Origin: an uncultured virus (IMG/VR IMGVR_UViG_3300009376_000009) | Taxonomy: Duplodnaviria; Heunggongvirae; Uroviricota; Caudoviricetes | Direction: 5' to 3' (one strand) | Length of the DNA stretch: 64,000 nucleotides | Virus record (IMG/VR): IMGVR_UViG_3300009376_000009 | Part shown: positions 1 through 63,297 of the stretch, in pieces | How positions within the stretch are numbered: position 1 is the first letter of the stretch | Layout of the letters: every line of letters starts with the position of its first letter | Notes under the pieces: model-generated | Seen by the model: the letters and a program-made list of their open reading frames with translations, nothing else | Databases searched by the model: none | What the model was told of the DNA's origin: nothing | Translations under genes and position numbers: made by a program

Positions 1-38
1 TGTTACAAAACGCTTGAGAGAACGTTACAAAACTCTGT

Positions 39-214
39 TCTCCGCCGAAGGCGGAGAGAGAGAGAGAGGCCCGCCGAAGGCGGGCCGTTACAAAACGTTC
101 GCGCCCCGCAGGGGCGCGTTACAAAACCTTCCTCTCGCCCGTTACAAAACCTTCCTCCTGTTCGTTACAAAACGTGTTACAAAACTTCCTCCCCCCCCCC
201 CGCAGGGGGGGGGG
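39..214. repeat. Four GC-rich hairpins with GAA/GCA triloops
   Basis: TCTCCGCC-GAA-GGCGGAGA (39-57), GGCCCGCC-GAA-GGCGGGCC (68-86), CGCGCCCC-GCA-GGGGCGCG (100-118), C11-GCA-G10 (191-214). Confidence 0.85.
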
Positions 215-240
215 CGCTCATCTGCCCCCCGTTACAAAAC

Positions 241-618
241 TCAGGGGATGACCCCGAACCAATTTGTCGGGTCGTCGGGAGTCTCAGGGTCAGGGGCGCA
301 AAATATGCACGGCGTCCCGCCGTGAAATTGGTTCAGGTCTGTGCCGTCGTGCGCCACCCAATCGGTGTCCGGCATCGTGCCGGTGCAGTTCAATGTCTCT
401 CCGTTACAAAACTTTTCGGTCATCAGGGTCATCATCAGGTGTCGGGTCTTGTCCGATACCGGCAGGCACGAATCGTCTGAGCCGGAGGCCCACACGTAGT
501 CAACCATCGCGTGGATGCTGACTAGGAAGTCATGCAGCCGTTGTAGGCTCCATGCGGGCAGGTTCCTGATGTATCTATGCGACCAAATCTTGCGCTTCTG
601 TGGGTGTGTCTTGTCCAT
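241..618 (-). CDS. Hypothetical protein, cassette 1 (125 aa)
   Basis: ATG is 25 nt from the TATA of GGTTCATATA. C-terminal CxxC. Confidence 0.8.
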   Translation of the reverse strand: MDKTHPQKRKIWSHRYIRNLPAWSLQRLHDFLVSIHAMVDYVWASGSDDSCLPVSDKTRHLMMTLMTEKFCNGETLNCTGTMPDTDWVAHDGTDLNQFHGGTPCIFCAPDPETPDDPTNWFGVIP

Positions 619-639
619 GACCCATCCTGCGTGTCCGGG

Positions 640-700
640 TATATGAACCCTCCTTATCCGTTACAAAACGTTTGTTCGTCCGAGCCGGACGTTTTGTAAC
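640..700 (-). promoter_or_regulatory. Cassette promoter 1: TATA box plus interrupted palindrome
   Basis: GGGTTCATATA at 640-650 (minus strand). GTTACAAAAC 660-669 and GTTTTGTAAC 691-700 are split by a 21-nt insert. Confidence 0.8.
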
Positions 701-821
701 ATTTGAAATGTTGCGTTACAAAACTTTCACCGTCCGTTACAAAACGTTAGAGAGAAAGCGTTACAAAACTTAGAGAGAGAGTGTTACAAAAGTTTGCAAA
801 TCGTTACAAAATCTGTAACGC

Positions 822-1250
822 TCAAGAGTCCCTCCTGATGCTGATGCAGTAGGAGGTAACGTCTTCCATCTCCCAACCCTTCGATTCGATGAACTGTTGT
901 AGGGGCCAATTCCAGCCGCCGCCCATGTACTCGGCGTCGCCCTCCGGCGATAGGAAGTCATACAGTATACCGCCGTCGAATACTAGGAATAGGTCACCCT
1001 CGCACTCGTGGCTGCTGAACCCCCTGTCGCCGCCCCCTGTGGCGAATGAGAAGGTGTCCTTGAACAGCGTGCAGCCTGAATGGGCGGAGTTCAGGGCAGG
1101 AGCAGGGTATAGGGGGTTACCGTCCTCATCGTCGCAGGTGAAGCGGGCATTGAGCCACTCACGGATGACTGACGCCATCTTGCGTGCTGCTGGTGGTAGG
1201 TGTTCGATGGCGAAGTCTGCGTGGTAGGCGGGTGTCCCGTCTGCGTCCAT
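822..1250 (-). CDS. Hypothetical acidic protein, cassette 2 (142 aa)
   Basis: Leaderless ATG at the conserved promoter spacing. Acidic, protein-like composition. Confidence 0.85.
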   Translation of the reverse strand: MDADGTPAYHADFAIEHLPPAARKMASVIREWLNARFTCDDEDGNPLYPAPALNSAHSGCTLFKDTFSFATGGGDRGFSSHECEGDLFLVFDGGILYDFLSPEGDAEYMGGGWNWPLQQFIESKGWEMEDVTSYCISIRRDS

Positions 1251-1271
1251 GCTACGTCAGCATGAAGCCCC

Positions 1272-1311
1272 CCTATAAACCCCTGCTCTTTGTTACAAAA
1301 CGTTTTGTAAC
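1272..1311 (-). promoter_or_regulatory. Cassette promoter 2
   Basis: GGGTTTATAGG plus perfect palindrome GTTACAAAACGTTTTGTAAC at 1292-1311. Confidence 0.8.
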
Positions 1312-1431
1312 ATTTTATATGTTGCCGTTACAAAACTTTTCGTTACAAAACTTTCAGAGAGAGAGAGGGGTGTTACAAAATGTTCAGAGAGAGAGCGTTA
1401 CAAAACCTGTGCGTTACAAAACCTGTAACGC

Positions 1432-1821
1432 CTACTCGTCAACCTCCTGCGCGTCGCGTGCCTGCTGCTTGAGTGCGTTGATGAGTCCGGTGTTGAATTG
1501 GCGGGTCGTTACAAAACTTATGTTAGCGTCCCACCCGCGAGCGCGGCGAAGGAAGTCCTCTGTTACAAAACTTGGAACCCACGTCCAGCCCCACGCAGCG
1601 CGAGCCATGCCGATGCGCTCCATCAGGCTAGCGACCGAGAAGGTCTTGGGGAAGGGGAACGCCCCCCCGCGTCGGTACATACGGGTGTCGTAGTCGGCAG
1701 GGATGCTGCCGAACCCGCACACCATGCCGAGGAAGGCAAGGCCATGTGGGTCGTTACAAAACTCTAGTTCTTGAGGGGTCAGGTCGTCGCTGCATTCGGT
1801 GGTGTCTATGATGAGGGGCAT
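1432..1821 (-). CDS. Hypothetical protein, cassette 3 (129 aa)
   Basis: GGAGTGA Shine-Dalgarno upstream of the start, own promoter at 1861. Confidence 0.8.
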   Translation of the reverse strand: MPLIIDTTECSDDLTPQELEFCNDPHGLAFLGMVCGFGSIPADYDTRMYRRGGAFPFPKTFSVASLMERIGMARAAWGWTWVPSFVTEDFLRRARGWDANISFVTTRQFNTGLINALKQQARDAQEVDE

Positions 1822-1860
1822 GTCGGGTCACTCCGTTCTGTATGTCGCTCCACTTCCTAG

Positions 1861-1900
1861 TATATGAACCCCTCGACCCTGTTACAAAACGTTTTGTAAC
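1861..1900 (-). promoter_or_regulatory. Cassette promoter 3
   Basis: GGGTTCATATA plus palindrome at 1881-1900. Confidence 0.85.
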
Positions 1901-2020
1901 ATCGAATATATTGTCCGTTACAAAACTTTCAGAGAGAGAGAGTGTTACAAAACTTTCAGAGAGAGAACGTTACAAAAGTTTCTCTCAGAGAGAGAGCGTT
2001 ACAAAACTTCGTTACAAAAC

Positions 2021-2257
2021 TTATTCTTCACCGAATCGTCTGCAACCCGACTCGTCGTCCTCGATTACCACGTCATCTATCAGGTCGCAGGCGCAGCGTA
2101 CACAGGCTATCGCCCTCCTGAACTTTCCTTCATCGGCTAGACGGATGGCGTCGTTACAAAACTCTAACATCAGTCGGACCTTTGCACATTTCAGCGCATC
2201 TGCATTTTTCACTAACACGTACTCATCGGCCTCGCCGCCGCGCCGCACTTCGCTCAT
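2021..2257 (-). CDS. Hypothetical protein, cassette 4 (78 aa)
   Basis: Leaderless ATG 25 nt from TATA. Cys-containing acidic C-terminus. Confidence 0.8.
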   Translation of the reverse strand: MSEVRRGGEADEYVLVKNADALKCAKVRLMLEFCNDAIRLADEGKFRRAIACVRCACDLIDDVVIEDDESGCRRFGEE

Positions 2258-2278
2258 GACCCATCCTGTCGTTCGTAG

Positions 2279-2318
2279 TATATGAACCCCTCGACTGTGT
2301 TACAAAACGTTTTGTAGC
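2279..2318 (-). promoter_or_regulatory. Cassette promoter 4
   Basis: GGGTTCATATA plus palindrome with one mismatch at 2299-2318. Confidence 0.85.
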
Positions 2319-2402
2319 ATCACATATACTAACCCGCGTTACAAAACTTTTAGGCTAAGAGAGAGAGCGTTACAAAATGTTTAGAGAGAGAACGTTACAA
2401 AA

Positions 2403-2614
2403 GTTCCCCACTATCCTCCGCCCCCATACCGGGGGGCGAGGGACTTCGGGGGTCGCGTCGTATGGTACGCGCTCCCCCTACATCGCCCCGGTCTTCAAGG
2501 GTCGTCCCGGCTCCGTCGAGCCGATGCCGTCCTCTCGTGGGGTTCTGCGTGGGGTCGGATTCATCTTCTACCAGCCTTGCTCGATGCTTACAGCCGCTTC
2601 CGGTTCCTCCTACA
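2403..2614 (-). ncRNA. Candidate structured non-coding RNA, cassette 5 (~210 nt)
   Basis: Own cassette promoter but no ORF at the expected start. Three GC-rich hairpins plus a possible CCCCAC/GTGGGG closing helix. Confidence 0.55.
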
Positions 2615-2635
2615 AATTGTCCTGTGCGCCACCAC

Positions 2636-2675
2636 TATATGAACTTGCCTATGCCGTTACAAAACGTTTTGTAAC
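2636..2675 (-). promoter_or_regulatory. Cassette promoter 5
   Basis: AGTTCATATA plus palindrome at 2656-2675. Confidence 0.8.
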
Positions 2676-2761
2676 GTCCATTATGTTGCGTCGTGCGTTA
2701 CAAAACTTGTAACGGTCAGAGAGAGCAGACAGAGAGGAAGAGCGTTACAAAACTTTTAGGC

Positions 2762-3094
2762 TCAAAAGTCCGCGATTATCAGTCCTCCCTCAATCGTTAC
2801 AAAACTTCCGTCAATCAATTCGGTCTTGGTAAACTCAATAACCGTCGTATGGTCGCGCAGGTCTTCAAGGCTCGTGATGCTGTCGTAATTCTCCTGCACT
2901 TCCGCGAGGTTCTCATACTCGGTGTACTCGCAGCAAATGTCTATGGGATAAAACTCAATCTCAATGCCGCAATCCTCTTCAAGTTGCGTGAGGTATTCGT
3001 ACAACGCTATACGCCCGTAATACGAGAAGTTTGCTTCGCGGTTGCACTCTCTGAACGCATCAATAAACATCGTCTGCGTGACCGTTTCTTTCAT
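2762..3094 (-). CDS. Hypothetical acidic phage-type protein, cassette 6 (110 aa)
   Basis: Leaderless ATG 25 nt from TATA. The NFSY..R.ALYEYL..LEE / DICCEYTE pattern resembles phage hypothetical proteins. Confidence 0.85.
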   Translation of the reverse strand: MKETVTQTMFIDAFRECNREANFSYYGRIALYEYLTQLEEDCGIEIEFYPIDICCEYTEYENLAEVQENYDSITSLEDLRDHTTVIEFTKTELIDGSFVTIEGGLIIADF

Positions 3095-3115
3095 GTTACG
3101 CGCTGTTGTTCCTAG

Positions 3116-3155
3116 TATATCAACCCTGTTACTGTGTTACAAAACGTTTTGTAAC
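3116..3155 (-). promoter_or_regulatory. Cassette promoter 6
   Basis: GGGTTGATATA plus palindrome at 3136-3155. Confidence 0.85.
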
Positions 3156-3234
3156 ATCAGTAATATTGCTTGCGTGTTACAAAACTTTTGAGGCAAAAGA
3201 AAGAGAGAGAGAGAGTGTTACAAAACTTTTAGGT

Positions 3235-3513
3235 TCAAGGGCAGTAATAGGCTACTACTGTGTAGTCCTCCTTTGATAGAAGGAATCCAATCTCGGTGGT
3301 GTCGCCCTCGGCATCAAGGATGAAGATGAGTCCGCGACTCTTCCAATCCTTTTGGTTGACTGCGTGCATGGCTTGGTATACCCTTTCCTTCGATACGCTG
3401 ATTGGGGTTCCAAGCATTCGCCAATCGCCGGTCGGTCTGACCAATAACTCGCAGTCGGCCAAGTCCTTGATACTTGCTCTCCAAGCATCCTTGTCGGGGC
3501 CACTCTTACTCAT
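3235..3513 (-). CDS. Hypothetical protein, cassette 7 (92 aa)
   Basis: Leaderless ATG 25 nt from TATA. Confidence 0.8.
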   Translation of the reverse strand: MSKSGPDKDAWRASIKDLADCELLVRPTGDWRMLGTPISVSKERVYQAMHAVNQKDWKSRGLIFILDAEGDTTEIGFLLSKEDYTVVAYYCP

Positions 3514-3534
3514 GTTACGCGCACGGACTCCGAG

Positions 3535-3574
3535 TATATGAACCCACCGACGGCGTTACAAAACGTTTTGTAAC
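3535..3574 (-). promoter_or_regulatory. Cassette promoter 7
   Basis: GGGTTCATATA plus palindrome at 3555-3574. Confidence 0.85.
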
Positions 3575-4040
3575 ATTCGCCCGTTCGCGCCCGCGCCGTT
3601 ACAAAACGTTGAGAGAGAGTGGGTGTTACAAAACGTTGTTACAAAACGTTGGCCTCCGTTACAAAACGTTTGGTGCAGAAAGTGCATCAAGTGTAGCCAA
3701 ACTCACCTAATGCAGATTTCGCAGCAGGTGTGATAGGCGCAGTAAGTGTTTTGGGGGTTACTTAGTGTTAGAATGAAACTAAGTGCAAGAGTTACATTTA
3801 AGTGTAGAATATGCAGCGAGTGCAGTTTTTGCACCGTTACAAAACATTTCCATAGGGGTTACAAAACATTAGGCGAAAAATAACCCGTTACAAAACGTCC
3901 CGAATCCAACTCTTCAAATACGAATCGCAAGCGTGAAATCGCTTGGAGGGGTCATACAGGCCGTTGCGCGTTGATTTGGGGTCAAAGTACTACCCCCACT
4001 TCATAAACGCTCTAAACACGTGTTTTTCGACCCCACAACA

Positions 4041-4177
4041 GGTTGATATACTCGTATGCTGTCCGGTATGGACTCCGGCGACGCGACTCGCCAAGTTGAT
4101 ATACTACTACCTCGTCTGATACCGGCGCGGCGCACCGTTACAAAACTTAATCGTTACAAAACCGCAGGTTCATATAC
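4041..4177 (+). promoter_or_regulatory. Three tandem rightward TATA elements
   Basis: GGTTGATATAC at 4041, AGTTGATATAC at 4094, GGTTCATATAC at 4167. The TATA of the last lies 25 nt before ATG 4198. Confidence 0.7.
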
Positions 4178-4197
4178 TCCTACTACGTCCCGCGTAC

Positions 4198-4653
4198 ATG
4201 GCGACAGGCTTCCCCTGCCGATACCGCAAGTGTAACGGAGTAGTCCACACCGGCAAGTGTCCGGTAGCGGCTGCACGAGGCAGAGCAGGAGGCAAGCAGA
4301 CCGGCGAGAGCAAGGCACGCACCGGAGAAGCCAACGGACGATTCAAGCACGGCTACCGAGATTGCTGCGAGACACTCACCACTAGCCCCCACCATATTCT
4401 ATGCGCCCACGCGAGGCACAGCATGAGGAAGAACATCAGAGCCAAGACTAATATCGAGGCACAGCCCGTCAGAGTGACCGTAGAGTGGGCTTCGATTTCG
4501 CTTGACTGCAAGGCTGTCGCGACGATGCTCCGGGGCGTAGACGGACTCTGCGCCTGCGGGACTACGCTGCCTGCGGTGCAGGCTCAGAGGATTCACCCGG
4601 AGGACGTGACGCAGAATCCAGCACGAGTGATATGCAACGCTTGCGACTGCTGA
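4198..4653 (+). CDS. Cys/His-rich putative Zn-binding protein
   Basis: Several C/H clusters, a terminal CxxC, and a GEANGRFKHG motif resembling NUMOD3-type DNA-binding motifs. Confidence 0.75.
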   Translation: MATGFPCRYRKCNGVVHTGKCPVAAARGRAGGKQTGESKARTGEANGRFKHGYRDCCETLTTSPHHILCAHARHSMRKNIRAKTNIEAQPVRVTVEWASISLDCKAVATMLRGVDGLCACGTTLPAVQAQRIHPEDVTQNPARVICNACDC

Positions 4654-4672
4654 TGCGCACCTTCTTAAGCAT
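4637..4672 (+). promoter_or_regulatory. Class II early promoter (ACGCTTGCGA-N19-TAAGCA)
   Basis: Motif at 4637, TAAG at 4666, ATG at 4691. Confidence 0.8.
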
Positions 4673-4690
4673 GGACGAGGACGGAGAGAT

Positions 4691-4969
4691 ATGACCGAGC
4701 AGCCCCCTGCCGATATACCAACTGAGCCTGACCGCCTCCTGCGGGAGAAGAAGAATGCCGTCCACCTGTGGCGCATCCTCCTTGACTGCCTTGACTGCGG
4801 CGACTGCATAGAAGACTTCCAGCGGCAGCCCGGAATCCAATTCAAGATTAGCCACCTGACGACTATCCTGACGACATGGCTCAAAGAAGCCGAGGACAAC
4901 GTAGAGTATCACGGCAAGAGCGACATGGAGAGAATCAAACTGATGTTGGAGAGTGGCCTCAATGAGTAA
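4691..4969 (+). CDS. Hypothetical protein (92 aa)
   Basis: Leaderless start 25 nt after TAAG. Confidence 0.8.
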   Translation: MTEQPPADIPTEPDRLLREKKNAVHLWRILLDCLDCGDCIEDFQRQPGIQFKISHLTTILTTWLKEAEDNVEYHGKSDMERIKLMLESGLNE

Positions 4970-5255
4970 CTCCACCGGAGAGATACGAGCAGTAGACGTC
5001 TGCTACCAATGCGGCGGCCCTCTACTTAACAATCAATTTGAGATGCTCAAGAGCGACCAAATGACCGACTTCCCGAATGGAGTATGGATAGACCAAAAGT
5101 ATTGCGTGGGCGAGGGAACTCTCAACTGCGCTTCGCTCCCGCGTGAAGTTAGACGCGGCCCTCTCTACGACGAGTGGATTACCTACGAAGCCGCAGACCT
5201 TCACACAGAGATTCAGGCTAAAAGAAACTCTGACGACGACGCTTGCGACGAGTAA
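4962..5255 (+). CDS. Hypothetical protein with CxxC
   Basis: ATG overlaps the upstream stop. CYQCGG knuckle. Confidence 0.75.
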   Translation: MSNSTGEIRAVDVCYQCGGPLLNNQFEMLKSDQMTDFPNGVWIDQKYCVGEGTLNCASLPREVRRGPLYDEWITYEAADLHTEIQAKRNSDDDACDE

Positions 5256-5274
5256 ACGGCATAGTTATAAGCAT
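5239..5274 (+). promoter_or_regulatory. Class II early promoter
   Basis: ACGCTTGCGA at 5239, TAAG at 5268, ATG at 5293. Confidence 0.8.
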
Positions 5275-5292
5275 GATTAACGAGGACAAAAT

Positions 5293-6324
5293 ATGAGCAA
5301 CACCCCCACACCCGAACTGCGGAACCTCCTGTCCGCCTTTGACGCCTTCGGCAAGTCTGCCGAGGGTGAAACAGGAATCGAAGTACTCAAGAACGCCGGT
5401 ATGGACTTCCGCGTAGAGTTGGAACCAATCTACCGGAGCAACAACGGCGGAGCAGTCAAGGACGGCTCCCGATTCAGGAGAGTCAGCCGAACCGACACTC
5501 ACGCCACGCTCGGAGTCGTATCTACCGGCTTCGTCCCATTCCAGCCCCGCGAGATGGCTGAGATTGGCGAGAAGATTGCTAAGGGCCGCGACGTCCTATG
5601 GGACAGGGTCGGCATGACTCACGGCGGCGCACGGATGATGATGAGTTTCCAACTGCCCGAAGAGTTCTCCTTCGGCAACGGCAACGACTCCGAGAGCATT
5701 CAGACGTTCTTCTACCTGATGAACGCGCACGACGGCTCTAGCGGCATGAAGATAGTGCCTTCACCCGTCCGCCTCGCCTGCTCCAACCAATTCCCGATGC
5801 TTGACGGCTTCCTCCGCAAGATGGGAGTCAACCCGAAGGACTTGTCTATCAGGCACAGCAGCCTCATGCACGGCAAGATGGAGAAGGTCATCAGCGCACT
5901 CAACATCGTAGACAACCTCTCGGAGCAATTCGCACAGGCTAACGCCGAGTTGCTTGAAGTCGAGATGGACGTCGGCGCACGGACGGAGTACTACATCGAA
6001 GTCCTCGGCCTCAAGACCGACCCGGAGTTGATTGACCTTGTCGAGAACCCCTTCGGCCTCGCTACACGCGGCAAGAACACCCTCAACGACCTCATCGAAA
6101 TCGAGGCTCTTGAGCGCAACAACGTAGGCGAGATGAACGACAGCGCCTTCCAAGCCTTCACCACGATAACGGACTTCCTTGACCACCGCAACGTCCACAA
6201 CAAGGACGGCTCAATCAACGAGCAGCGAGTCGAGTCGGCCATCATGGGGCCATCAGCACGCCTCAAGAACAAGGCTTGGGAGATTCTTGACGAGCGCGTC
6301 ATCGAAGCGCGACAAGTTGCGTGA
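5293..6324 (+). CDS. DUF932/DUF945-family phage/plasmid protein
   Basis: Motifs R.DT..TLGVVS..F.P.Q, NAHDGSSG, PVRLACSNQ and IRHS. Confidence 0.85.
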   Translation: MSNTPTPELRNLLSAFDAFGKSAEGETGIEVLKNAGMDFRVELEPIYRSNNGGAVKDGSRFRRVSRTDTHATLGVVSTGFVPFQPREMAEIGEKIAKGRDVLWDRVGMTHGGARMMMSFQLPEEFSFGNGNDSESIQTFFYLMNAHDGSSGMKIVPSPVRLACSNQFPMLDGFLRKMGVNPKDLSIRHSSLMHGKMEKVISALNIVDNLSEQFAQANAELLEVEMDVGARTEYYIEVLGLKTDPELIDLVENPFGLATRGKNTLNDLIEIEALERNNVGEMNDSAFQAFTTITDFLDHRNVHNKDGSINEQRVESAIMGPSARLKNKAWEILDERVIEARQVA

Positions 6325-6682
6325 GTGAGTCTAACAAACCGAGCCTAAAAGTAACTTCCTATCCCATTCCAAAATCACAACCGAAAGGAGAATCTCACGA
6401 CGAGCAAGGCGTAGCCTCATCTGACTGTGAGAAAGTCGTCGTCCCTATGGAACCACGAGCCGCCTGCCCTGACGAGGGGCAACGGGCAGCACGTGATGGG
6501 GCGGCGCACCCCCAACAACGAAAACCCAAGTCCTCTCCCCTGCGGCGTCCGCCTTGACGAAGGCCCACAGGATTGCTTGAACGCAGGGTCGGGGCAACAA
6601 ACTTTTGTAACGCATGGGGGCGAGTGGAGTTGTCCTCGCTCGCTCCCGCCTGCGTTTCTTGGGGTTAAAAGTAACTTGGAGA

Positions 6683-6703
6683 TTTTTTTGTGACGATTTT
6701 TTT
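6683..6703 (+). terminator. Archaeal T-tract terminator
   Basis: Two T7 runs upstream of the next promoter. Confidence 0.6.
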
Positions 6704-6798
6704 CGATGCCTCTGACGACGACAGAGAGAGAGATGAGAGAGAGAAGATTTCATCTAAAAGTAAGTCCCGCGTGCGACCCGAAGTGATAGACGACGGCG

Positions 6799-6833
6799 AC
6801 GCTTGCGATACGGAACCGTCATCTTCTTAAGCA
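6799..6833 (+). promoter_or_regulatory. Class II early promoter
   Basis: ACGCTTGCGA at 6799, TAAG at 6828, ATG at 6853. Confidence 0.8.
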
Positions 6834-6852
6834 ACGACAGAGAGGCGTGGTC

Positions 6853-7386
6853 ATGCAAGAGATAGTGCGTAGAGGCAAGGACTCTGACGTCTTCACAGGA
6901 CTCAAACTTGTGAACAAGCACAACGGCCACATGGCTATCGTTACGGGCGCGAACGTTACTGACTACGGCAGCGTACAATGGGACGTGCAGAAGCACACCG
7001 AGTCTTTCTCTCTAACATGGAATGCTAGGGACATAGCGAAGCATTGGTATCTCTGCACGCACGAAGAGTATGACCAACTACTCAGACTCTCATCAGAGTT
7101 GGCTGCACCCGACGCCAAACTCGTAGAGGCGACGGGCATCATCCCTATCAAGAGGGGGGAGATGACGCAAGTTAAGAGTCAAGGCTCAGAGTCAATCATA
7201 TACAGGTGGGAATATCACTACATCAAGCAGGACGAATCCTACGTGGACGAGTTGAAGCCTGTGGTCGTTAACTTCCGCCTAAAACTAAACTCCGATGATG
7301 CAGGCGAATTGACCGGGTACAACATCATTGATGAGCCTCTTCCCAACAGAGACTACAATCCGTTGGAGAACAAAGAAGAAGAGTGA
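6853..7386 (+). CDS. Hypothetical protein
   Basis: Long ORF. Start reassigned to ATG 6853 from promoter spacing. Confidence 0.8.
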   Translation: MQEIVRRGKDSDVFTGLKLVNKHNGHMAIVTGANVTDYGSVQWDVQKHTESFSLTWNARDIAKHWYLCTHEEYDQLLRLSSELAAPDAKLVEATGIIPIKRGEMTQVKSQGSESIIYRWEYHYIKQDESYVDELKPVVVNFRLKLNSDDAGELTGYNIIDEPLPNRDYNPLENKEEE

Positions 7387-10392: not shown

Positions 10393-10572
10393 ATGAGCGC
10401 AAACTGCATAAGGTGTAGAAACGCTATCATGGGGCAAGGACATAGAGTAAGCATTCTCCTGCATCGTAACAACGAGAGCGAATACGCTGCTGCCTCAATA
10501 CGAGGCAAAGTCTGCGGCAACTGCTTCCTTTGGCTTGACGCTGTGAGCATCGAGCAAGGGTCGAAGTTTTGA
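10393..10572 (+). CDS. 59-aa Zn-finger protein (not in ORF track)
   Basis: MSANCIRC...KVCGNCFLWLD has two CxxC motifs and a GGAAGG Shine-Dalgarno. Confidence 0.7.
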   Translation: MSANCIRCRNAIMGQGHRVSILLHRNNESEYAAASIRGKVCGNCFLWLDAVSIEQGSKF

Positions 10573-10616
10573 AGGCTAAAACTAATGCCTGCAATATTTC
10601 CAACGTTACAAATCCA

Positions 10617-12452: not shown

Positions 12453-12890
12453 ATGGACCGATTTAATTCAAACGAACCGTTGGAAGATGAACCTAAAAGT
12501 ATTCCACCGGCATATCGAACCAAGAGTAGTGGAGTCACGCCCCAAGAAGTCTGCAAGACACTTGACGACATTGAGATTGCAGCGTCGCAAACAATCACTA
12601 CCCATGACGAAGCAGATAGTCAATTCAGAAGCATCACAGAACAGGCTGCCGAATTAAATGAGCGCATCAATGAAGCCGGGGTTGTAGACGATGATTACGA
12701 ATACGAAATCTCACACATGAGAGAATTGATTGAAGATGCTGCTCGCTATATGTCGGTTGGTAACTACCGTCAAAATGTCCCAAGAAACGTCATCAAACAC
12801 TTCAAAGACACCATGAAGCGTATGAACGCCATAATCGCGCTCAACAAACAGGCCCGTCGAGAAGGTTCAGAAGATGCAGGAACGAATTGA
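12453..12890 (+). CDS. Hypothetical helical protein
   Basis: ORF packed in the operon. Confidence 0.75.
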   Translation: MDRFNSNEPLEDEPKSIPPAYRTKSSGVTPQEVCKTLDDIEIAASQTITTHDEADSQFRSITEQAAELNERINEAGVVDDDYEYEISHMRELIEDAARYMSVGNYRQNVPRNVIKHFKDTMKRMNAIIALNKQARREGSEDAGTN

Positions 12891-22712: not shown

Positions 22713-23639
22713 ATGGTTGTCTACATCGGTAAAACCCAATTATCTACTCTGTTGAAAATGACGCAGCGACCTCAGACTATTGCGGGTAAAAGTAACTCAC
22801 AAGTCAATGCTTGTATGTTGACTGTGGCTTGGCCTCGTATCTACACTTGCTCGTTAGTCAAGGATGGTGTATCGAGTGTGTCTATCTTTTCACAACCACT
22901 CTCAGGACACGCCTCTCCGAAAGAGGGTGAAACAACGATTGAGTCAAGCAACGGACAAATCCCTATCGTGAATATCGAAGACACTTTGGGCGCATTGAAT
23001 CACCACAGCGAGAAACTCACGCTCATTCACAAGGAAGGCAACAAACTCTTGGTTAAGTCCAAAAGTAAGCAGACCACTCTCACGTCTAACGCTGATGCTT
23101 TGGCGTTTCCCCATAGCCCCGCCTCTCTCCAAGAATGGTATGCAAAATCCGTGTCTATCGCGGGTAAGGTTCTGAGCGAAGGAGTTTACGAATTGAATGA
23201 TGGCGAAAAAGTCACTCCATTCCATTCTTATTTCAATGTAGATGTGAATACTCTGCATGAAGCGTTGCGTTGCGTGAACATGAATAATCAGAAGTTGAAT
23301 GAGTATACTTTCGTTGGTTCAAATCATACCGCAAAAGATGGACTAAAAGTAATCACCGGTAATCAACTCAAGGGGCAGACGGAGTATACGTTGGACTTCC
23401 CTTTGAGTCAAGACTGCAAAGTCAGAAGCCTAAGTCTAAAGGGGAGCAACTATCAGGGGTTCAAGGCTACTTTCGGTGGTGGATTAGACCACATTATGCG
23501 AATCACACGGAATAGCAAGGCTGACCTTCACTTCGTAGATTTGAGGGACAAAGGGCAGGGGATTAAACTCATCATTGAATTAGGTGAGGGTGATTTCCTG
23601 CTTCAATCGTCAATAGGAGATTGTGAAGTCTATGTCTGA
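22713..23639 (+). CDS. Probable divergent PCNA-like sliding clamp
   Basis: Size, beta-rich two-domain pattern and context between RFC and PolB. Confidence 0.55.
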   Translation: MVVYIGKTQLSTLLKMTQRPQTIAGKSNSQVNACMLTVAWPRIYTCSLVKDGVSSVSIFSQPLSGHASPKEGETTIESSNGQIPIVNIEDTLGALNHHSEKLTLIHKEGNKLLVKSKSKQTTLTSNADALAFPHSPASLQEWYAKSVSIAGKVLSEGVYELNDGEKVTPFHSYFNVDVNTLHEALRCVNMNNQKLNEYTFVGSNHTAKDGLKVITGNQLKGQTEYTLDFPLSQDCKVRSLSLKGSNYQGFKATFGGGLDHIMRITRNSKADLHFVDLRDKGQGIKLIIELGEGDFLLQSSIGDCEVYV

Positions 23640-24090
23640 TTGGTTCGATATAGCAGCAAGACGAAGCAAGAAGACGGGTAAGCGTGTCGGGCCGAAAGTT
23701 TACATCAAGAAAGGAGATGAAAAACCCTTGTTCCCCGATGCAGATGGTAAACTTCCTCACGTGATTTACGTTGCGGACGCTACTCTCATTTCAGAGGGTA
23801 AAAGTATTGACGTGTATTCCATGCAAGTAGAACTCCAAACAGCAGGGACGCAAACTGTGACTTGGAAAGGTGCGAATGGGGAAAACTTCGTTGCCTCTAT
23901 CAAAATTAGGCAGGAGTTAGACCCTCTATACCGTGACCCTCTATGGTTGATGGAACAATACTTGGAGAAGGAAAGGAGCATGGCTGATATAGCCGACCAA
24001 TTTGGGATAACACCAACGGCTATCCACCAATGGCTACTTAAGCATGATATTCCTACCCGTAGCAAGGGAAGGAAGAAGCATGATAATTGA
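23632..24090 (+). CDS. HTH DNA-binding protein
   Basis: WL.EQY.EKERSMADIADQFGITPTAIHQWL.KHDIP.R. Confidence 0.85.
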   Translation: MSDWFDIAARRSKKTGKRVGPKVYIKKGDEKPLFPDADGKLPHVIYVADATLISEGKSIDVYSMQVELQTAGTQTVTWKGANGENFVASIKIRQELDPLYRDPLWLMEQYLEKERSMADIADQFGITPTAIHQWLLKHDIPTRSKGRKKHDN

Positions 24091-29209: not shown

Positions 29210-29279
29210 TCGGTTTTTTTAACGATATTTCCATCGTTACAAAACAACCTTTTATGTAGACTTAGGCTTAGGCTTAGGT

Positions 29280-41017: not shown

Positions 41018-41215
41018 CTAAGCCACGTCATACCAAACTACTGTTAGGGCAAGACCGGACGCACCATGCTTAGAAACCATGTCGCATGAGATAATCACAT
41101 CGTTATTCGCAATTGCGGCCCGTAGAGAAGTTTGGATAGAAGCGGCTGTTCCTTCAAATGTGCTTACTTTTAACTTAGTTTTGTCCGCAATCACCGTGCC
41201 GCCGTTGTTAGCCAT
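41018..41215 (-). CDS. Small hypothetical virion protein
   Basis: ORF within the tail operon. Confidence 0.7.
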   Translation of the reverse strand: MANNGGTVIADKTKLKVSTFEGTAASIQTSLRAAIANNDVIISCDMVSKHGASGLALTVVWYDVA

Positions 41216-47284: not shown

Positions 47285-50200
47285 CTAACTAAAATCTACA
47301 TACACTATACAGGAAACATGACCGAAACTCAGACTTCCACCAACCCGCTTTACTTGTAGAGAATCGCCCTCAGACACAGCAAACGTAAGCCCTGTTTTAG
47401 TGAAATTGTAGTTTGTTCCATTTGAGTTAACCATAGTATCGGCGGTGAGTGTGAAGTCTTCTATATCAGAGCCGGAAGTGCCTCCATTCTTACGCACACG
47501 GAAAGTCTGCGTTGCTGTGCCGCTAAGAGATGTGCCTGTCGAAGAAAGAGAGACTGCCCTCACTACACCGGCTTTCGGCATTGGGAAAAGATTTGACCCA
47601 CTTGTAGATGCGGCTGGAACGGGTATTCTCAAATCATAGGTGTTTGTGCCTAAACTATCTCGCTGGTAGAAATATTGCGCCCAACTGTTAAAGTCATCGT
47701 TATCAAACGCAGACAACTTGATTTCACTTATCAATTTCCTGCGTTCCCCTGCACCATAGTCCAATAAGATTAACTCATCCCGCGTCCCATCTACGTCCGC
47801 CGTCATATCCGTTAATTCAGTTAGGTCAAGAGAAATAGTGCTTGAGTAATCTCCGCTTGTCGTATTCGATTGGGAAATATCTAATCCTGTGCCGACTGAT
47901 ATATCAACTCCGGTCATATCACCACTACCGCCGCCGCCGGTCATATCATCTACAACTAGGTCAATAGTCCCATCTCCATCCTGATAGGTAGCAGAAATCC
48001 TCGTTTCCGTGTTAGATGTAAACATGGCCCCTACTATATCCTGAACTTCCTCGTTTGAAAGTTGAGTGTTCGTATCGGTATCGGTTGCTACCAAATCTAT
48101 TGTCCCGTCGCCATCTTGATAAGTAGCGGTGATATTAGTTTCAGTATTTCCTGAAAACATTCCGCCGACTATGTCTTGAACTTCCTCAGTTGTGAGTTGG
48201 GTGTCGGCGGTCATATCAGTTACTTCTAAGTCTATTGTTCCATCGCCATCTTGATAAGTAGCAGAAATCCTCGTTTCGGTATTACCTGAGAACATACCTC
48301 CGACTATATCCTGAACTTCCTCAGTTGAGAGTTGAGTATTCGTATCAGTAGCGGCAATAGTCATATTTGTGCCGGACGGAGTGAGGCTTATATTGCTTCC
48401 AGCAACCAATTTAATGTCTTGTGTCCCACTTCCTGCGCCACTTTCAGTCAATCGAAGGAGAACATCGGCACTACTGTCTACCCATGAAGTCGCATATTCG
48501 TTCTGAGTATTAGTGTTGGCCGTCATATCATCTACGACTAAATCTATCGTTCCATCTCCATCTTCATAGGTAGCCGAAATCCTAGTTTCGGTGTTCGACG
48601 TAAACATAGCGCCTACTATGTCTTGAACCTCTTCCGTTGTAAGATTAGTGTCTAAGTCATCCACAACTAGGTCTATGGTTCCGTCACTATCCTCGTATGT
48701 AGCCGTAATCCGGGTTTCGGTATTGCTTGTAAACATAGCACCGACAATATCCTGAATATCCTCTGTGGGGTCAGTCCATGACCCAACTCCACTAAGACCG
48801 GAGTATTTGAGATAATTACCCGTAGACCCCCCACTTGGAAGATGAATATTTCCTGCGGTTGTTGGGTGACTATATTGAGTTGAGGCAAATGTAATTGAGT
48901 CGGCTCCTGCTGATGTAGTAATTGTAACGTTGCTTCCCCCCACCAACGTTAGGGTATCTGTCGCTCCGTCTGCTACCACATCATCTTGCCCTGATACTGA
49001 TATAGTCTTGAATGCCTCTCCTGCCCCACCCGATGCGGTAGTGTCTATTGCATCTTGTAGGTTATCGAGAGTCATATACTTCCATTCCGAAGCAGTTTCG
49101 TCCCATAGCAGAATCTTATCGTCAGTAGCATCTGATGACTCATCTAATTCAGTAAGAGTTACGGGGTCTGCAATACTGAATGTAGTAGTTGAAAGAGCAA
49201 GGCCATTACCTGCTGAATACGTAGTATTGGTATCTGCGGTCATATCGTCTACGACTAAGTCTATTGTTCCATCACCATCCTGATATGTCGCTGAGATTCT
49301 TGTTTCTGTGTTACCACCGAACATAGCCCCTACTATGTCTTGAATATATTCATCACTCCGAGGTTGAGTGTCGGCGGTCATATCGTCTACGACTAAGTCA
49401 ATAGTCCCGTCACCGTCCTCGTATGTGGCCGCAATCCTAGTTTCCGTGTTACCACCAAACATAGCCCCCACAATGTCTTGCACAGCCTCGGTAGTCAATG
49501 GCGCACCGTCCAATGTAGTCACTACATCTATTGTTCCATCCCCGTCCTGATATGTAACTGCCGTGTTGGTTTCGGTATTCGATGTAAACATAGCCCCCAC
49601 AATATCTTGAACTTCTTCTGTGGTGAGTTGGGTATTTGCGGTCATATCATCTACAACCAAGTCTATTGTCCCATCTGCATCATCATAGGTGACCGAAATC
49701 CTTGTTTCGGTGTTGCTGGTGAACATCGCTCCTACAATATCTTGAATGTCTTCTGCGGGGTCAGCCCATGTTGCTACTCCTGAGAACCCACCATACTTCA
49801 AATAATTACCTGATGAACCCCCTGTTGGAACGTGCTTATTGCCCGCAGTTGTTGGATGAGTATAGACTGTGTCTGTATCTGTCGCAGCAATAGTCATATC
49901 TGTGCCGGACGGAGTAAGAGAAATATTACTCCCTGCGACCAACTTAATGTCTTGTGTCCCTGAGCCTGCTCCACTTTCTGTTAACCTAAGAAGAACATCA
50001 CTACTGCTATCTACCCAAGACGTTGCATATTCGTTCTGCGTGTTGTTATCAGTAGTCATATCATCAACTACGAGGTCAATTGTTCCATCCCCGTCTTGAT
50101 AGGTGGCCGCTATTCTCGTTTCAGTATTGGAAGTGAACATGGCTCCTACAATATCTTGCACTTCTTCGGTAGAAAGATTAGTGTCCGCAACATAGTCGGG

Positions 50201-53200
50201 AGTAGCCCATGTCGCTACTCCGCTAATGCCGGAGTATTTCAAGAATTGACCTGACGACCCCCCTGATGGAATGTGAATATTCCCCGCAGTAGTTGGATGA
50301 GTATAGACGGTGTCGGTATCAGTAGCAACAAAGTCAAGTGTTCCATCCCCATCTTGATATGTGACCGAAATATTAGTTTCTGTGTTACCTGAAACCATCG
50401 CCCCTACTATGTCTTGAACTTCTTCGGTTGAAAGTTGAGTATTCGTATCAGCAGTCATATCATCAACAACAAGGTCAATGGTTCCATCACCATCTTCGTA
50501 TGTTGCTGAAATACGAGTTTCTGTGTTACTTGAAAACATGGCCCCTACTATATCTTGCACAGCCTCGGTAGTCAAAGGAGCGCCATCAAGAGTTGTGACG
50601 ACGTCTATCGTCCCATCACCATCCTGATACGTAACTGATGTGTTAGTTTCAGTATTGCCTGAAAACATGGCCCCTACCAAATCTTGAATATATTCATCAG
50701 TCCGAGGTTGAGTATCTGTGGCGACGAAATCAAGGGTTCCATCACCATCCTCATACGTCACAGAAATGTTTGTTTCAGTATTCCCTGATACCATCGCCCC
50801 AACAATGTCCTGCACTTCCTCAGTCGTAAGGGCAGCGACATAATCAGGAGTAGCCCATGACCCAACCCCACTCAAACCTGAGTATTTCAAGAATTGGCCT
50901 GATGAACCACCGGCAGGAAGATGATGATTACCCGCAGTTGTAGGGTGAGTATAGACTGTATCATTGTCGGTGGCTACGAAATCGAGAGTCCCGTCATCGT
51001 CTTGATATGTGACTGAAATATTAGTTTCAGTATTGCCCGATACCATAGCACCCACAATATCTTGAACTGCTTCCGTAGTCAAGGGCGCACCATCAAGGGT
51101 AGTAACCACATCAATAGTGCCGTCACCATCTTGATAGGTAACAGAAGTATTCGTTTCGGTGTTCGACGTAAACATAGCCCCGACTATATCCTGCACTTCC
51201 TCAGTTGTAAGTTGGGTATCAGCCGTCATATCGTCTACGACTAAATCTATTGTTCCGTCGCTATCATCATAGGTAACTGAAATCCTAGTTTCCGTATTCG
51301 ATGTAAACATGGCTCCGACAACATCTTGAATATCTTCTGTGGGGTTAGTCCAAGTTGCTACCCCACTTGTTAGAGCATATTTCAAATAATCGCCCGACGA
51401 ACCCCCGGTTGGGACGTGCTTGTTTCCAGCAGTAGTAGGGTGAGTATAGACGGTATCTGTATCTGTCGCCACGAAATCAATCGTTCCATCACCATCCTGA
51501 TAAGTAACTGAGATATTAGTTTCCGTGTTACCTGTGAGCATACCACCTACTATGTCTTGCACTTCCTCCGTTGTTAGGTTGGTATCTAAATCATCAACGA
51601 CAAGGTCAATAGTCCCATCTCCGTCTTCGTATGTAGCCGAGATTCGTGTTTCGGTATTTCCTGAGAACATGGCTCCTACTATGTCCTGAACGGCTTCTGT
51701 CGTAAGTGGTGCGCCGTCAAGAGTAGTAACCACATCTATTGTTCCATCCCCGTCTTCGTAAGTAACTGATGTATTGGTTTCTGTGTTGCCTGAGAACATG
51801 GCTCCGACAATATCTTGCACCGCTTCGGTAGTTAGTGGTGCGCCATCGAGAGTTGTAACTACATCAATAGTCCCGTCTCCATCTTGATAGGTCACAGAAG
51901 TATTAGTTTCAGTATTCCCTGAAAACATGGCTCCTACAATATCTTGAACTTCCTCAGTAGATAACTGAGTATTAGTGTCTGCGGTCATGTCGTCCACAAC
52001 TAAGTCAATTGTGCCGTCACCGTCTTCGTAAGTGGCGGCAATACGAGTTTCAGTATTCCCTGAAAACATAGCCCCGACAATATCCTGAACGGCTTCGGTG
52101 GTCAATGGTGCGCCATCTAAGGTCGTGACCACATCTATTGTGCCGTCGCCATCTTGATATGTAACTGCTGTATTGGTTTCGGTATTACCGGAGAACATAG
52201 CACCGACAATATCCTGAATATACTCATCAGTCCGGGGCTGTGTATCAGTAGCAGCAATAGTCATATCTGTCCCATCAGGGGTTAACGAAACGTTAGAGCC
52301 AGCAACCAATTTAATATCCTGTGTTCCTGAACTTGCCCCACCTGCTGTTAAGCGCAGAAGAACATCGTTAGAGGAATCAACCCAAGAAGAAGTGTAGGTA
52401 TTTTGGGTGTTAGTGGTTGTGTCGGGAGGAACTACCCAATCACCGTCCTCCCTAAGATACTTGGTAGTAGTGGCTCCGCCATCTCTTGCAGGAACTAAAG
52501 CGGCTGTGCCGGGGCTTGTTGAGCCTGCGAACGTCGAGTAAGTGGTATCAGGAGAAGTTAAGGTAATGAGGAAGGGGTCGCCCGAAGTCCCGGCTCCTGT
52601 TAAGTTCGTCCCAAGTGAGCCTGTGGCGGTCACAAACTTCACATATTCGCCTTCTTGCACATCTTCGTTGTCGCCGCCACTATCTACAATCTTGAAGCCA
52701 TCCCCCATGTCTACTGTATCTGTATTTGTCGTAAAAGTAAGTGCGCTTTGCATATAGGTCGTCAAGCGACTCATAGTGGCCTTCCTATTCGTTCCTCCTG
52801 CGCCATTATCTACAATCATAAGGTCAGCATCAACTAACGCTTCACCAATGTCGGTCATACCATCAATATCAAGACTAAATGCTGTTCCTGATAATCCGAT
52901 ACCACCGTTTGCCGTAGCAGAATACGTAGTATTTGTGTCTGCGGAGGAAAATGTAATTGTGTCCGTTCCAGCATTCGTGGTAATCGTCATACCACCCGCC
53001 GCTACAAGAGTTAAGTCATCTCCCGCAGAAGCCGCAAGTGAAGTTTGGCCGGACACCGCAATACTGTCGAAAGCGTTAGCACTACCCCCCGCCGCAGCCC
53101 ACTCAATACCGTCCGCCCCCGAATTAACGGTCAAAACTTGGTTTGCGGTTCCAATCGCTAATACGCCTAATGCACCATGTCCTTGTCCGTACAATACTGA

Positions 53201-61595: not shown

Positions 61596-61713
61596 CAATT
61601 CCTTTATTCCTTCAAAGACGTAGATAATAGAATATGCTTACTATCTCATAGTTACTCTAAGAACAGGAGGGGGGCATCTCCAAAATAGCCTCTTTGAAGG
61701 AATAAAGGAATTG
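61596..61713. repeat. Perfect 23-bp inverted repeat with 72-nt spacer
   Basis: CAATTCCTTTATTCCTTCAAAGA (61596-61618) and its reverse complement (61691-61713). Confidence 0.9.
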
Positions 61714-61812: not shown

Positions 61813-63297
61813 ATGGGGGCGGAACCTGTCGCTGGTGGCTATACGGGCCGCACCAAGTTTGTCGGCGGACAAGACCTAATTGAGAAGTTTGCTCAAGAAC
61901 GAGCATTTGCGAGCGAAATGGACTTTGCTCGATTTTTGCATGAAATTGAGCCGAGGCGAAGCGTTAGTGGTTGGCGTGCTGCTATCAGTAGATGGAAAAT
62001 GGAGGATAAGAAGAACATCTTCCAAATCCCTCCTGATGAATACAGCGAAACAACCCCCTCGCGTATACGTGTTTACCACGACAAGGCAAATGACGTCTAT
62101 CTGACTATGTTGGATAATGCAAATGAGATGATTGCTGTTAGTGGCGAAACACACAGGGAAATGAGAAAAGCATACTCCAAAGATGGCTCTAATCTCAGTA
62201 TGAGGGAAATGAGCCGTGAGTTTGGCTTCCCCGAATCATGGGTTTACGAATACGTCAAAATTAACCGATGGAATCACCAAATGGATATTCACACCGATGA
62301 AGAGATTCAAAATCGGTCAGAAGAAGACCTTGTTCAAGAAATTGTAGATACTAAACGGAATATAGTCTTGGAAAAGGCTAATCGAAAATATTGGCGTGAA
62401 ATATCGAAAGATGCCGACAGAATGCGTCTTCTTGACGATTATCTGCTGAATGAGTTTAGAGAAGCACTAAAAACGCAGAATCTTGCTCCTAAAAAGGTCA
62501 CAAAACTGAAAATGGCGAAAGCAGAGCCATTTGCGGTGGTAATTTCCCCTACCGACCTTCATTTCGGTGAAAAGTGTTGGGTAGACGAAACCGGCAACGA
62601 ATATGATACCGAAGAAGCCCGATTGAGGCTTCTTGATAGGACTGAGAACCTAATTTCTCGACTTCCGGGTCGTCCTGAGAAGATTTTTCTTGCTACGGGT
62701 TCTGATTGGTTCCATGTTGATAATCCACAAGGTTCTACAACGAAAGGGACGTTACAGGATATGTCTACGACCCCAACTCAAATCTTCATGGATGGTTGTC
62801 TATTGGCGAGAGAACATATTGAGTTGCTGAGAAAGGTTTCTCCTGTTGAAGTGGTTTTTATGCGAGGTAATCACGATAGACACATGGCTTTGGCTCTGAT
62901 GATGTATCTTAGTGCGGTTTACGAGAATACTGATGACGTAAAAGTAATATGCAACCCAATGATACGTCAATATCTTACATGGGGTAATAATCTGCTTGGC
63001 TTTACGCATGGTGATGGGGTCAAAGGTAATGATTTGCCTCTTCTTATGGCTACTGAGGAACGAAAGGCTTGGGGTGATTGCGAACACCATACTTGGTTTC
63101 ACGGACACCTGCACCACATGAAGTTAACTGAGAAGGGTGGAACGACTGTTGTTCAATTACCGAGTTTGGCGGGAAATGATAGATGGACGTTTAGTAAGGG
63201 GTATACTGACTCAAGACCGGGGATTTGCGCCCATCTTCTCGACAAGGACTTAGGGTTAATTGGTAACCTATTTGCTCCGGTGATTTTGGATGAGTAG
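61813..63297 (+). CDS. Calcineurin-like metallophosphoesterase with N-terminal HTH region
   Basis: DLHFG, GSDWFH, GNHD, HGD, GHLHH. Confidence 0.9.
   Translation: MGAEPVAGGYTGRTKFVGGQDLIEKFAQERAFASEMDFARFLHEIEPRRSVSGWRAAISRWKMEDKKNIFQIPPDEYSETTPSRIRVYHDKANDVYLTMLDNANEMIAVSGETHREMRKAYSKDGSNLSMREMSREFGFPESWVYEYVKINRWNHQMDIHTDEEIQNRSEEDLVQEIVDTKRNIVLEKANRKYWREISKDADRMRLLDDYLLNEFREALKTQNLAPKKVTKLKMAKAEPFAVVISPTDLHFGEKCWVDETGNEYDTEEARLRLLDRTENLISRLPGRPEKIFLATGSDWFHVDNPQGSTTKGTLQDMSTTPTQIFMDGCLLAREHIELLRKVSPVEVVFMRGNHDRHMALALMMYLSAVYENTDDVKVICNPMIRQYLTWGNNLLGFTHGDGVKGNDLPLLMATEERKAWGDCEHHTWFHGHLHHMKLTEKGGTTVVQLPSLAGNDRWTFSKGYTDSRPGICAHLLDKDLGLIGNLFAPVILDE

Follow-up and report, generated by a model that had tools for sequence, protein, structure and literature searches.

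The DNA analysed here, referred to throughout as the window, is a stretch of 64,000 nucleotides (nt) from an uncultured tailed virus (IMG/VR record IMGVR_UViG_3300009376_000009), the left end of which is occupied by a series of small leftward genes and by a dense array of one short word, GTTACAAAA. An exact k-mer map of the window places 52 plus-strand copies of this word between positions 2 and 4162, the full 10-mer GTTACAAAAC accounting for 46 of them, while the remainder of the 64 kb holds only two, at 29236 (plus strand) and 6603 (minus strand). Under a first-order Markov null, 0.02 copies are expected per 4.17 kb, and the maximum in 300 draws was one. The initial annotation had reported about 52 plus-strand copies in the first 4.2 kb and few thereafter, and the map agrees with it on both counts. 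Its description of the copies as co-oriented fits these 52 but must be qualified by six minus-strand copies within the same span, each of which is a partner in an inverted pair (five 20-base-pair palindromes and the split pair 660/691). Similarly, the (GA)n spacers that it described are present, but only 13 of 37 short spacers between sites hold (GA)3 or longer. With respect to genes, six of the 52 copies lie within open reading frames (ORFs), seven are promoter-proximal and the other 39 are intergenic. The genes, promoters and sites of this region are as follows.

2..4162, plus strand: array of 52 GTTACAAAA(C) sites, the right half of a module of ~9.4 kb which extends a further ~5.3 kb leftward from base 1
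241..618, minus strand: small early ORF of 125 amino acids (aa), with one in-frame site (403)
640..700, minus strand: promoter of ORF 241-618; TATA at 640-647, site at 660 with its end 12 nt upstream of the TATA and a split inverted partner at 691
822..1250, minus strand: small early ORF, 142 aa, with homologs in L008 and L029
1272..1312, minus strand: promoter of ORF 822-1250; TATA at 1272-1279, palindromic site pair at 1291-1312
1432..1821, minus strand: small early ORF, 129 aa, with three in-frame sites (1508, 1562, 1753)
1861..1901, minus strand: promoter of ORF 1432-1821; TATA at 1861-1868, palindromic pair at 1880-1901
2021..2257, minus strand: small early ORF, 78 aa, with one in-frame site (2153)
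2279..2319, minus strand: promoter of ORF 2021-2257; TATA at 2279-2286, palindromic pair with one mismatch
2400..2615, minus strand: promoter-driven unit without an ORF, a candidate non-coding RNA
2636..2675, minus strand: promoter of the ORF-less unit; TATA at 2636-2643, palindromic pair at 2656-2675
2762..3094, minus strand: small early ORF, 110 aa, phrog_9974, with one in-frame site (2796)
3116..3156, minus strand: promoter of ORF 2762-3094; TATA at 3116-3123, palindromic pair at 3135-3156
3235..3513, minus strand: small early ORF, 92 aa
3535..3575, minus strand: promoter of ORF 3235-3513; TATA at 3535-3542, palindromic pair at 3555-3575
4137..4200, plus strand: rightward promoter at which the array closes; two sites with ends 23 and 7 nt ahead of the TATA (4169)

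Extent and layout of the array

The array is real. It is covered by Logan contigs from three runs of one study, one of which may be the source of the window, and pieces of it are covered by a run from a second study; a strain that is ~90% identical to the window virus (L355) has the same layout, with 69 plus-strand and 8 minus-strand copies. An assembly artefact was considered and is ruled out by the contigs of several runs together with the L355 layout. Moreover, the array does not end at base 1. A further contig, L002, is 99.99% identical to the right end of the window and overlaps its left end, and presents, in order, the terminase, a winged-helix-like gene, a gene encoding a protein of 291 aa, rightward small genes with seven inverted sites, and the array running into base 1. 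This contig adds 33 plus-strand and 7 minus-strand copies across the 5.3 kb preceding base 1, and the whole module, beginning just past the terminase, holds 85 plus-strand and 13 minus-strand copies (~98 sites) over ~9.4 kb.

The strict polarity that had been proposed for the array does not hold over this longer span, the sites being inverted in the rightward genes to the left of base 1 of the same virus and other lineages mixing orientations. Relative to transcription, the sites keep one sense in both gene blocks of the window virus and in L007, are mixed in other lineages, and are reversed in the rightward genes of L004 and L008, in which the A-rich strand is the sense strand. No match to the exact 20-base-pair palindrome was found in viral contigs, though near-palindromes are common in relatives.

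Spacings between sites in the window range from 12 to 500 nt, with neither a helical nor a fixed period (phase coherence 0.07-0.27), and helical phasing of the sites is ruled out by this analysis. Iteron and parS arrays have regular, helically phased spacing, a feature not found here; neither a cognate Rep nor a ParB was found, and the suggestion of a parS/iteron-like array gains no support from the spacing. A weak ParB-like PHROG stretch (53 aa, E 0.005) is present in the ORF at 12874 and also in the array-less genome G002. The single reverse copy at 6603 lies in the gap after a DUF932 gene, and L001 likewise has one there (11166).

Sites upstream of promoters

In all seven leftward promoters of the window, which make up a 74-nt repeat family, the nearest site ends 12 nt upstream of the TATA box. 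The same distance is found in 23 of 24 promoters pooled over six loci of the GTTACAAAA lineage and in eight of nine in L355, while other lineages have recurring distances of their own (14 or 27 nt in G004; 23-24 nt in L047, L057 and L064). The view that the copies are far more than promoter function needs is thus correct for the 45 of 52 that lie elsewhere, but overlooks that each promoter has one site at an invariant distance from its TATA. A TATA-like box lies 29 nt before the ATG in five of the seven leftward units, a spacing that is expected for leaderless transcripts. None of the seven B recognition elements (BREs) fits VRAAA, which is the Pyrococcus consensus and may not be that of Poseidoniales. 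According to the accessible part of one account, archaeal activators usually bind upstream of the BRE-TATA, and TFB-RF1 acts at weak BREs (PMC5937170).

At the rightward promoter closing the array, the nearer of the two sites (4153) covers the BRE, and the same spacings recur in L008. One further site lies far from the array; the corresponding promoter of genome G006 also carries the word:

29236..29245, plus strand: isolated site, followed after 5 nt by the TATA-like box of the ERCC4/Hef nuclease gene at 29280

Sites within genes

In the TATA-called module genes of seven loci, FCN and FVT peptides are encoded by the motif in 23 of 23 instances, a few of which are counted twice through nested ORF calls; in the core ORFs, which comprise 15,450 aa, the corresponding figure is 0 of 2. 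The homolog of ORF 1432-1821 in the array-less locus L017 retains the FCN peptide through different codons and, because it does so, codon usage indicates that selection acts on the DNA word and not on the peptide.

The ORF-less unit at 2400-2615 has a complete promoter of the 12-nt type, a largest ORF of at most 28 aa and an RNA fold z of -2.33, and in a related strain it contains non-triplet indels. Rfam gave no match in window positions 1-6900, and thus none for this unit. A 27-nt piece of it recurs in the same sense at 10540-10566.

Lineage-specific words in related viruses

Relatives were taken from the best 80 of 128 terminase loci, of which the 42 with at least 3.5 kb downstream were used and 38 were dropped; an array is present in 30 of the 42 and in 12 there is none. 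A second scan yielded 20 further loci, 11 with arrays that were counted, seven that were too short and two that were repeats. In every genome checked, including four further genomes, the arrays are restricted to the block beside the terminase. Conservation of the motif in relatives had been named as a check on the idea of a protein-bound array; arrays are indeed present in relatives, and the word itself is specific to each lineage. The words include GTTACAAAAC, GGTTACAAAAA, GCTACAAATTT, TATCTACAAAT, TTACCAACAAAT, ACCCTACAAAA, GCCTACAAAAC, CCCTACGAAGT and TCACGGCCAAAA, among others, and an ACAAA-like core is common to most of them.

Several comparisons place the change of word at the edge of the module. 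L066 and L069 share 96% identity across the terminase as far as this edge and are unrelated past it, and a second switch of word is found in the clade of L081 and L209. Among terminases no more than 0.025 apart, viruses with different words are intermingled in the terminase tree, whereas the tree of the first module gene, derived from a quick search, separates by word, with long branches. Because of the trees, the L066/L069 break and the L081/L209 switch, the first gene and the word are taken to travel as a cassette, a sequence pattern that supports, but does not prove, binding of the word by the product of that gene.

Neither the array nor the first gene is present in G415 (75 kb) or G416. 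In array-less loci (e.g., L025:12100-14700), TATA-like repeats (ATATACTAG, AAGACTATA) in 5-9 copies, together with (GA)n runs, replace the array, and possibly represent a different form of control or decoys for the TATA-binding protein (TBP).

Probable identity of the virus and its host

Library scans of the window gave matches to PolB, RFC, a Cas4-like protein, Hef/ERCC4, portal, terminase, tail tube and tape measure proteins, and no confirmed match to MCM, primase, clamp or RadA; neither a DNA ligase nor an integrase was found among 46 ORFs scanned. A Metallophos_2 phosphoesterase is encoded at 61813-63297, between portal and terminase. In the accessible part of the description by Philosof et al. 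(PMC5434244), magroviruses are among the most abundant marine viruses, those of group C have PolB, RFC, an uninterrupted polymerase and genomes of about 70 kb, and a PolD-exonuclease-like phosphoesterase inserted in the structural module is the mark of that group. A head-tail module with an archaeal-type replication block (PolB, clamp loader), the lack of a DNA ligase and a genome of 65-100 kb also characterise the group. Because of the gene set and the position of the phosphoesterase between portal and terminase, we infer that the window virus is a group C magrovirus of ~70.5 kb, the longest contig carrying the 291-aa gene being 70,516 nt, and the gene content points to the order Poseidoniales as host. 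A tRNA scan found none, and a search for the terminase in prokaryote genomes gave no match.

A candidate regulator encoded by the first module gene

The most probable binder of the word is the product of the first gene of the module, located outside the window:

L002:8840-9715, plus strand: candidate binder P0001, a 291-aa Cys4 gene, first gene of the module

The family to which this gene belongs encodes fast-evolving proteins of 250-420 aa with four conserved cysteines followed by a Y/F-E-x-K strand, and comprises only 29 representatives at 50% identity. An AlphaFold model is beta-rich (pLDDT 78.6; 87.7 for the C-terminal part). The best Foldseek rows are DUF35-like zinc-ribbon/OB proteins (E 0.04-0.08), a wide fold search with VIA gave best Z scores of 2.3 (rmsd 4.4, 60 aligned) and 2.9 (rmsd 3.4, 54 aligned), and BFVD gave one match (A0A516M115, E 5.5e-6); the lack of a fold match does not in itself make the fold new. 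The first gene's own promoter has no site in the window virus.

We consider it tentatively, at somewhat short of even chances, that the word is the binding site of this Cys4 regulator, which would activate the early-module promoters via host TBP and transcription factor B (TFB). After entry, host RNA polymerase with TBP and TFB would transcribe the first gene, and its Cys4 (zinc-ribbon), beta-rich product, the most likely virus-encoded regulator to bind the word, would occupy the site that precedes, by 12 nt, the TATA of each leaderless, weak-BRE promoter in the module and turn that promoter on by helping TFB and TBP to load. The extra intergenic and in-gene copies would raise local occupancy, so that the ~9 kb block becomes coated and comes under joint control; where a site covers a BRE (4153, 29236), it may restrain a later promoter. 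The protein, its word and the small genes would recombine together as a cassette and give each lineage its own dialect, as in the lambdoid immunity region or the stoperators of Cluster A phages.

Consistent with this proposal are the promoter geometry, the selection on the word within genes, the covariation of gene and word, the chance-level frequency of the word in host-order genomes and the co-occurrence of gene and array. With an expanded profile, 37 of 41 array loci have a first gene of the family at E<1e-10, two have a weak match and two have none, although the tally at this threshold is partly circular, many of the scored rows having been in the profile; the best reversed-sequence null reached 0.67. 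Among the 12 array-less loci, ten have no family match and two, from one virus, have a weak match 9 kb away.

Several points weigh against the proposal. Eight GGTTACAAAAA loci scored just 1.7e-4 to 0.025 before they joined the profile; L046 and L078 have arrays and no family match, their first genes aligning at an HHalign E of 0.07; and in array-less L025 and L027 there is an ORF of weak similarity (E 0.0034, HHalign E 0.038). With the exception of L011, the array-less loci form a single clade; they stand for only one or two loss events, and array-less G002 may be incomplete. Covariation of gene and word is confounded by linkage, as the gene adjoins the array and moves with it, and nearly the same word is found with very divergent proteins in the L002 and L209/L227 groups. 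As for the protein itself, that of the window virus is acidic (net -9), Pfam, PHROGs, a PDB sequence search and the ESM Atlas gave no family for it, and Foldseek against the PDB gave nothing at E<=0.001 for the whole model or its C-terminal part. Finally, activation alone leaves the in-gene copies unexplained, and site orientation relative to transcription differs between L002/L007 and L004/L008.

Two further observations concern the first-gene family and position. A compressed Cys4 and RYEK signature (E 0.0034) is present in an ORF of array-less L025 (18967-19758), among middle genes, and may mark a displaced relative. Larger first genes of 350-550 aa are found at L078:4032-5090, L046:12832-14208, L074:6899-8149 and L075:12178-13833; in that of L078 a SAP DNA-binding domain scores above the Pfam cut-off, a stretch to which the other three can be aligned.

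Other readings of the array

Two other readings retain the same protein and array and assign to them a different effect. Should the module be the first-injected end of the genome, comparable to the long terminal repeat of T5, the first-gene product would coat the DNA at ~100 sites and thereby pull it in, protect it or license the remaining transfer, with promoter-proximal placement being secondary. Such a role would fit the confinement of the array to the terminase-side block in all genomes checked, the presence of some sites within genes, the retention of DNA-type GNA-loop hairpins (described below) in L355 and, as a weak hint from contigs only, the greater depth of the module, ~1.5-fold in two runs (9.3 vs ~6; 6.4 vs ~4) and 16.8 vs 13.4 in a third. 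Coating, however, needs no invariant 12-nt distance to the TATA, array-less relatives share the same core genes, the spacing is uneven (12-500 nt), orientation is not tied to the genome end and the hairpins are lineage-restricted, such that we judge this reading unlikely. A broader picture, which we regard as unlikely, has a zinc protein of new fold, the earliest product made in infection, coat a first-entering terminal repeat (~100 sites), fire its promoters and draw in or shield the genome, with the exchanged cassette deciding superinfection. Alternatively, the same protein and sites may act in the manner of stoperators, shutting the early module after use and blocking related superinfecting viruses by promoter occlusion and by road-blocking elongation at in-gene sites. 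The multi-copy, asymmetric sites, their in-gene and junction copies, their single orientation to transcription in the window virus, the sites over the BRE at 4153 and 29236, and dialects that track a cognate gene, as in Cluster A (PMC6550527, in the part accessible), are all compatible with repression; yet the main site is placed ahead of the BRE, at the position used by archaeal activators, the BREs are weak, orientation is reversed in the L004/L008 rightward genes, and no sign of lysogeny was found in the window virus, with no integrase among the ORFs scanned. Repression of this kind is judged unlikely. Activation, entry or end-coating, and stoperator action are not mutually exclusive, and there is a strong probability that one or more of the three applies. 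In keeping with this, the protein-loading array suggested by the initial annotation is still the best reading and is kept in relatives, with the amendment that the word changes between lineages.

The remaining readings give the word to other molecules. Early genes rely on host machinery and most dialects share the ACAAA-like core, as would be expected if a host protein bound the word, whether as a hijacked activator or titrated by the array as a sponge, with dialects mirroring different hosts. Nevertheless, in 251 genomes of the host order, gathered with a Marine Group II 16S probe, the word is at chance level (0-10 per genome, 502 in total, mostly below the reversed control), which excludes a host-enriched word; it flips with the first gene between viruses that are 96% identical through the terminase; and array and first gene are lost together. 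A host protein, and with it the sponge for a host regulator raised initially, is therefore improbable, save perhaps for a factor that has few sites of its own. Searches for the Cys4 family gave no match in 400 of 401 genomes, and the one match is weak and stop-ridden. A different viral protein is decidedly improbable as the binder. The helix-turn-helix (HTH) gene listed below is present in five array-bearing genomes and missing from array-less G002 and G003, but it also occurs in array-less G415 and G416 and has the same recognition helix alongside different words; the winged-helix-like gene after the terminase is found in array-less genomes and gave no BLAST match in array-bearing G410, G411, G412 and G007. 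Both were rejected on these grounds. Least probable are terminator stacks, in which sense-strand U4 tracts and (CU)n would end short transcripts. The sense strand does read TTTT in the window virus and clusters of sites follow each stop codon, but six copies lie inside ORFs, non-U bases are invariant, the distance to the TATA is fixed, the sites have palindromic partners, the L034/L036 word has no U-tract, and in the rightward genes of L004 and L008 the A-rich strand is the sense strand. The (GA)n spacers may aid termination.

23632..24090, plus strand: small HTH gene before polB, a disfavoured rival candidate binder

Comparison with known systems

As far as the accessible part of PMC6550527 describes them, Cluster A mycobacteriophages carry many asymmetric stoperators, mostly in one orientation, at gene junctions and within genes, and their motif drifts between lineages along with the cognate phage gene (see also PMC9283540, likewise in part). 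Systems of this type block elongation and confer immunity from a prophage. The array resembles these in its many short asymmetric sites and in a motif that diverges with the candidate regulator, a likeness confounded here by linkage. It differs in that ~98 sites are concentrated in ~9 kb instead of being genome-wide, in that one site lies at a fixed distance upstream of each TATA in an archaeal virus, and in the candidate regulator, a Cys4 beta protein without an HTH match in place of an HTH immunity repressor. TFB-RF1 and Ptr2, upstream activators of a type that recruits TFB or TBP and raises transcription, likewise use a site placed at a constant distance immediately ahead of a weak BRE-TATA; these, in the accessible part of PMC5937170, are host regulators of known fold with one or two sites per promoter, whereas here the candidate is viral and without a fold match, and there are dozens of extra sites and lineage dialects. 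By analogy, the array would appear to follow Cluster A stoperators in its organisation and archaeal activator sites in its placement, a likeness that does not in itself establish membership of either class.

Haloviruses HF1 and HF2, archaeal tailed viruses, likewise have intergenic repeats carrying early-gene promoters, but the HF2 repeats are conserved across the genus and no cognate protein is described for them in the accessible part of PMC8707807, while in the magrovirus the word is multiplied, enters ORFs and swaps with a gene. The first-step-transfer region of T5 likewise consists of small genes expressed earliest, in a terminal block with many repeats and palindromes; the part of 10.1101/866236 that was accessible proposes that its boxes bind host DnaA, all of them lying in a single untranslated region and being conserved over 25 phages. 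The present word, by contrast, shows no host enrichment, lies beside every promoter and differs between lineages. Archaeal U-tract terminators have the tract on the sense strand and after genes only; the array differs from them in its in-gene copies, in a lineage word that lacks U4 and in the A-rich sense strand of L004 and L008.

The accessible part of the group C account (PMC5434244) describes no repeat array, promoter motif or early regulator, and no description of the array was found in the accessible literature, including the accessible parts of PMC11706807, PMC10160649 and PMC5628999. Literature matches to the 10-mer, among those listed, were all unrelated, and the array is apparently undescribed so far.

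The hosts of magroviruses are uncultured. A named protein, a predicted site, the precise layout of the promoters and about a dozen naturally occurring pairs of protein and word together offer a test that does not depend on the host. If the proposed activation by the Cys4 protein is correct, it would provide a new DNA-binding fold and a lytic archaeal virus with a swappable cassette resembling an immunity region. It would also account for the imprints left in the codons and peptides (FCN, FVT, VTK) of early genes, and yield orthogonal activator-site pairs for archaeal genetics. In the broader, unlikely picture of a coated terminal repeat, the Poseidoniales viruses would gain their first described transcription regulator and their first early-gene switch, with at least 12 natural protein-word pairs from which to read a new DNA-recognition code and with co-occurring magroviruses using private dialects.

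Other sequence elements

Between sites of the array near base 1 of the window are GC-rich hairpins, of a type with three-base GNA loops that is stable in single-stranded DNA:

68-86, 100-118 and 192-214, plus strand: three GC-rich hairpins, each with a loop of three bases, GAA or GCA

These are retained in L355, which has an extra one whose stem is changed and whose loop is the same, and none was found in six other lineages; a hairpin of the same type lies at L002:11856. A reading of them as RNA UNCG hairpins was rejected, since the pairing register gives three-base GNA loops on the plus strand. To the right, the divergent-promoter gap at 3660-3830 and 3900-4130 contains TGCA-rich repeats and inverted segments, similar to those in L001.

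Two further words recur outside the array. TAAAAGTAA, a possible second regulon, has 24 plus-strand and 4 minus-strand copies, located at 6346-29064 and also at 41164, 43876, 45977, 52732, 55132 and 62939; it is nearly always on the sense strand, often at start codons, over middle and replication genes, and is present in nine copies in G002 and none in G004. ACGCTTGCGA, at 4637, 5239, 6799 and 10617, precedes the TATA of rightward early-middle promoters, with a short and fixed gap between them, and occurs in array-less G002 and G003 as well. Copies of the array word are often directly adjacent to it, as at 10605 of the window (with one mismatch) and in G006, L051 and L057.

A conserved non-coding element ending in CGCAGTACARCGTTTTT (L002:8750-8795) occurs in both array-bearing and array-less lineages and is a candidate origin or packaging signal. 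It is present in inverted form at the far module edge in L024, L025, L047, L051, L054, L057, L066 and L069, which suggests module inversions. Elsewhere in the window, a tail-type protein of 2345 aa (47285-54322, minus strand) has ~22 internal repeats of 129-141 nt, and a perfect 23-nt inverted repeat with a 72-nt spacer (61596-61713) lies between the divergent portal and phosphoesterase genes.

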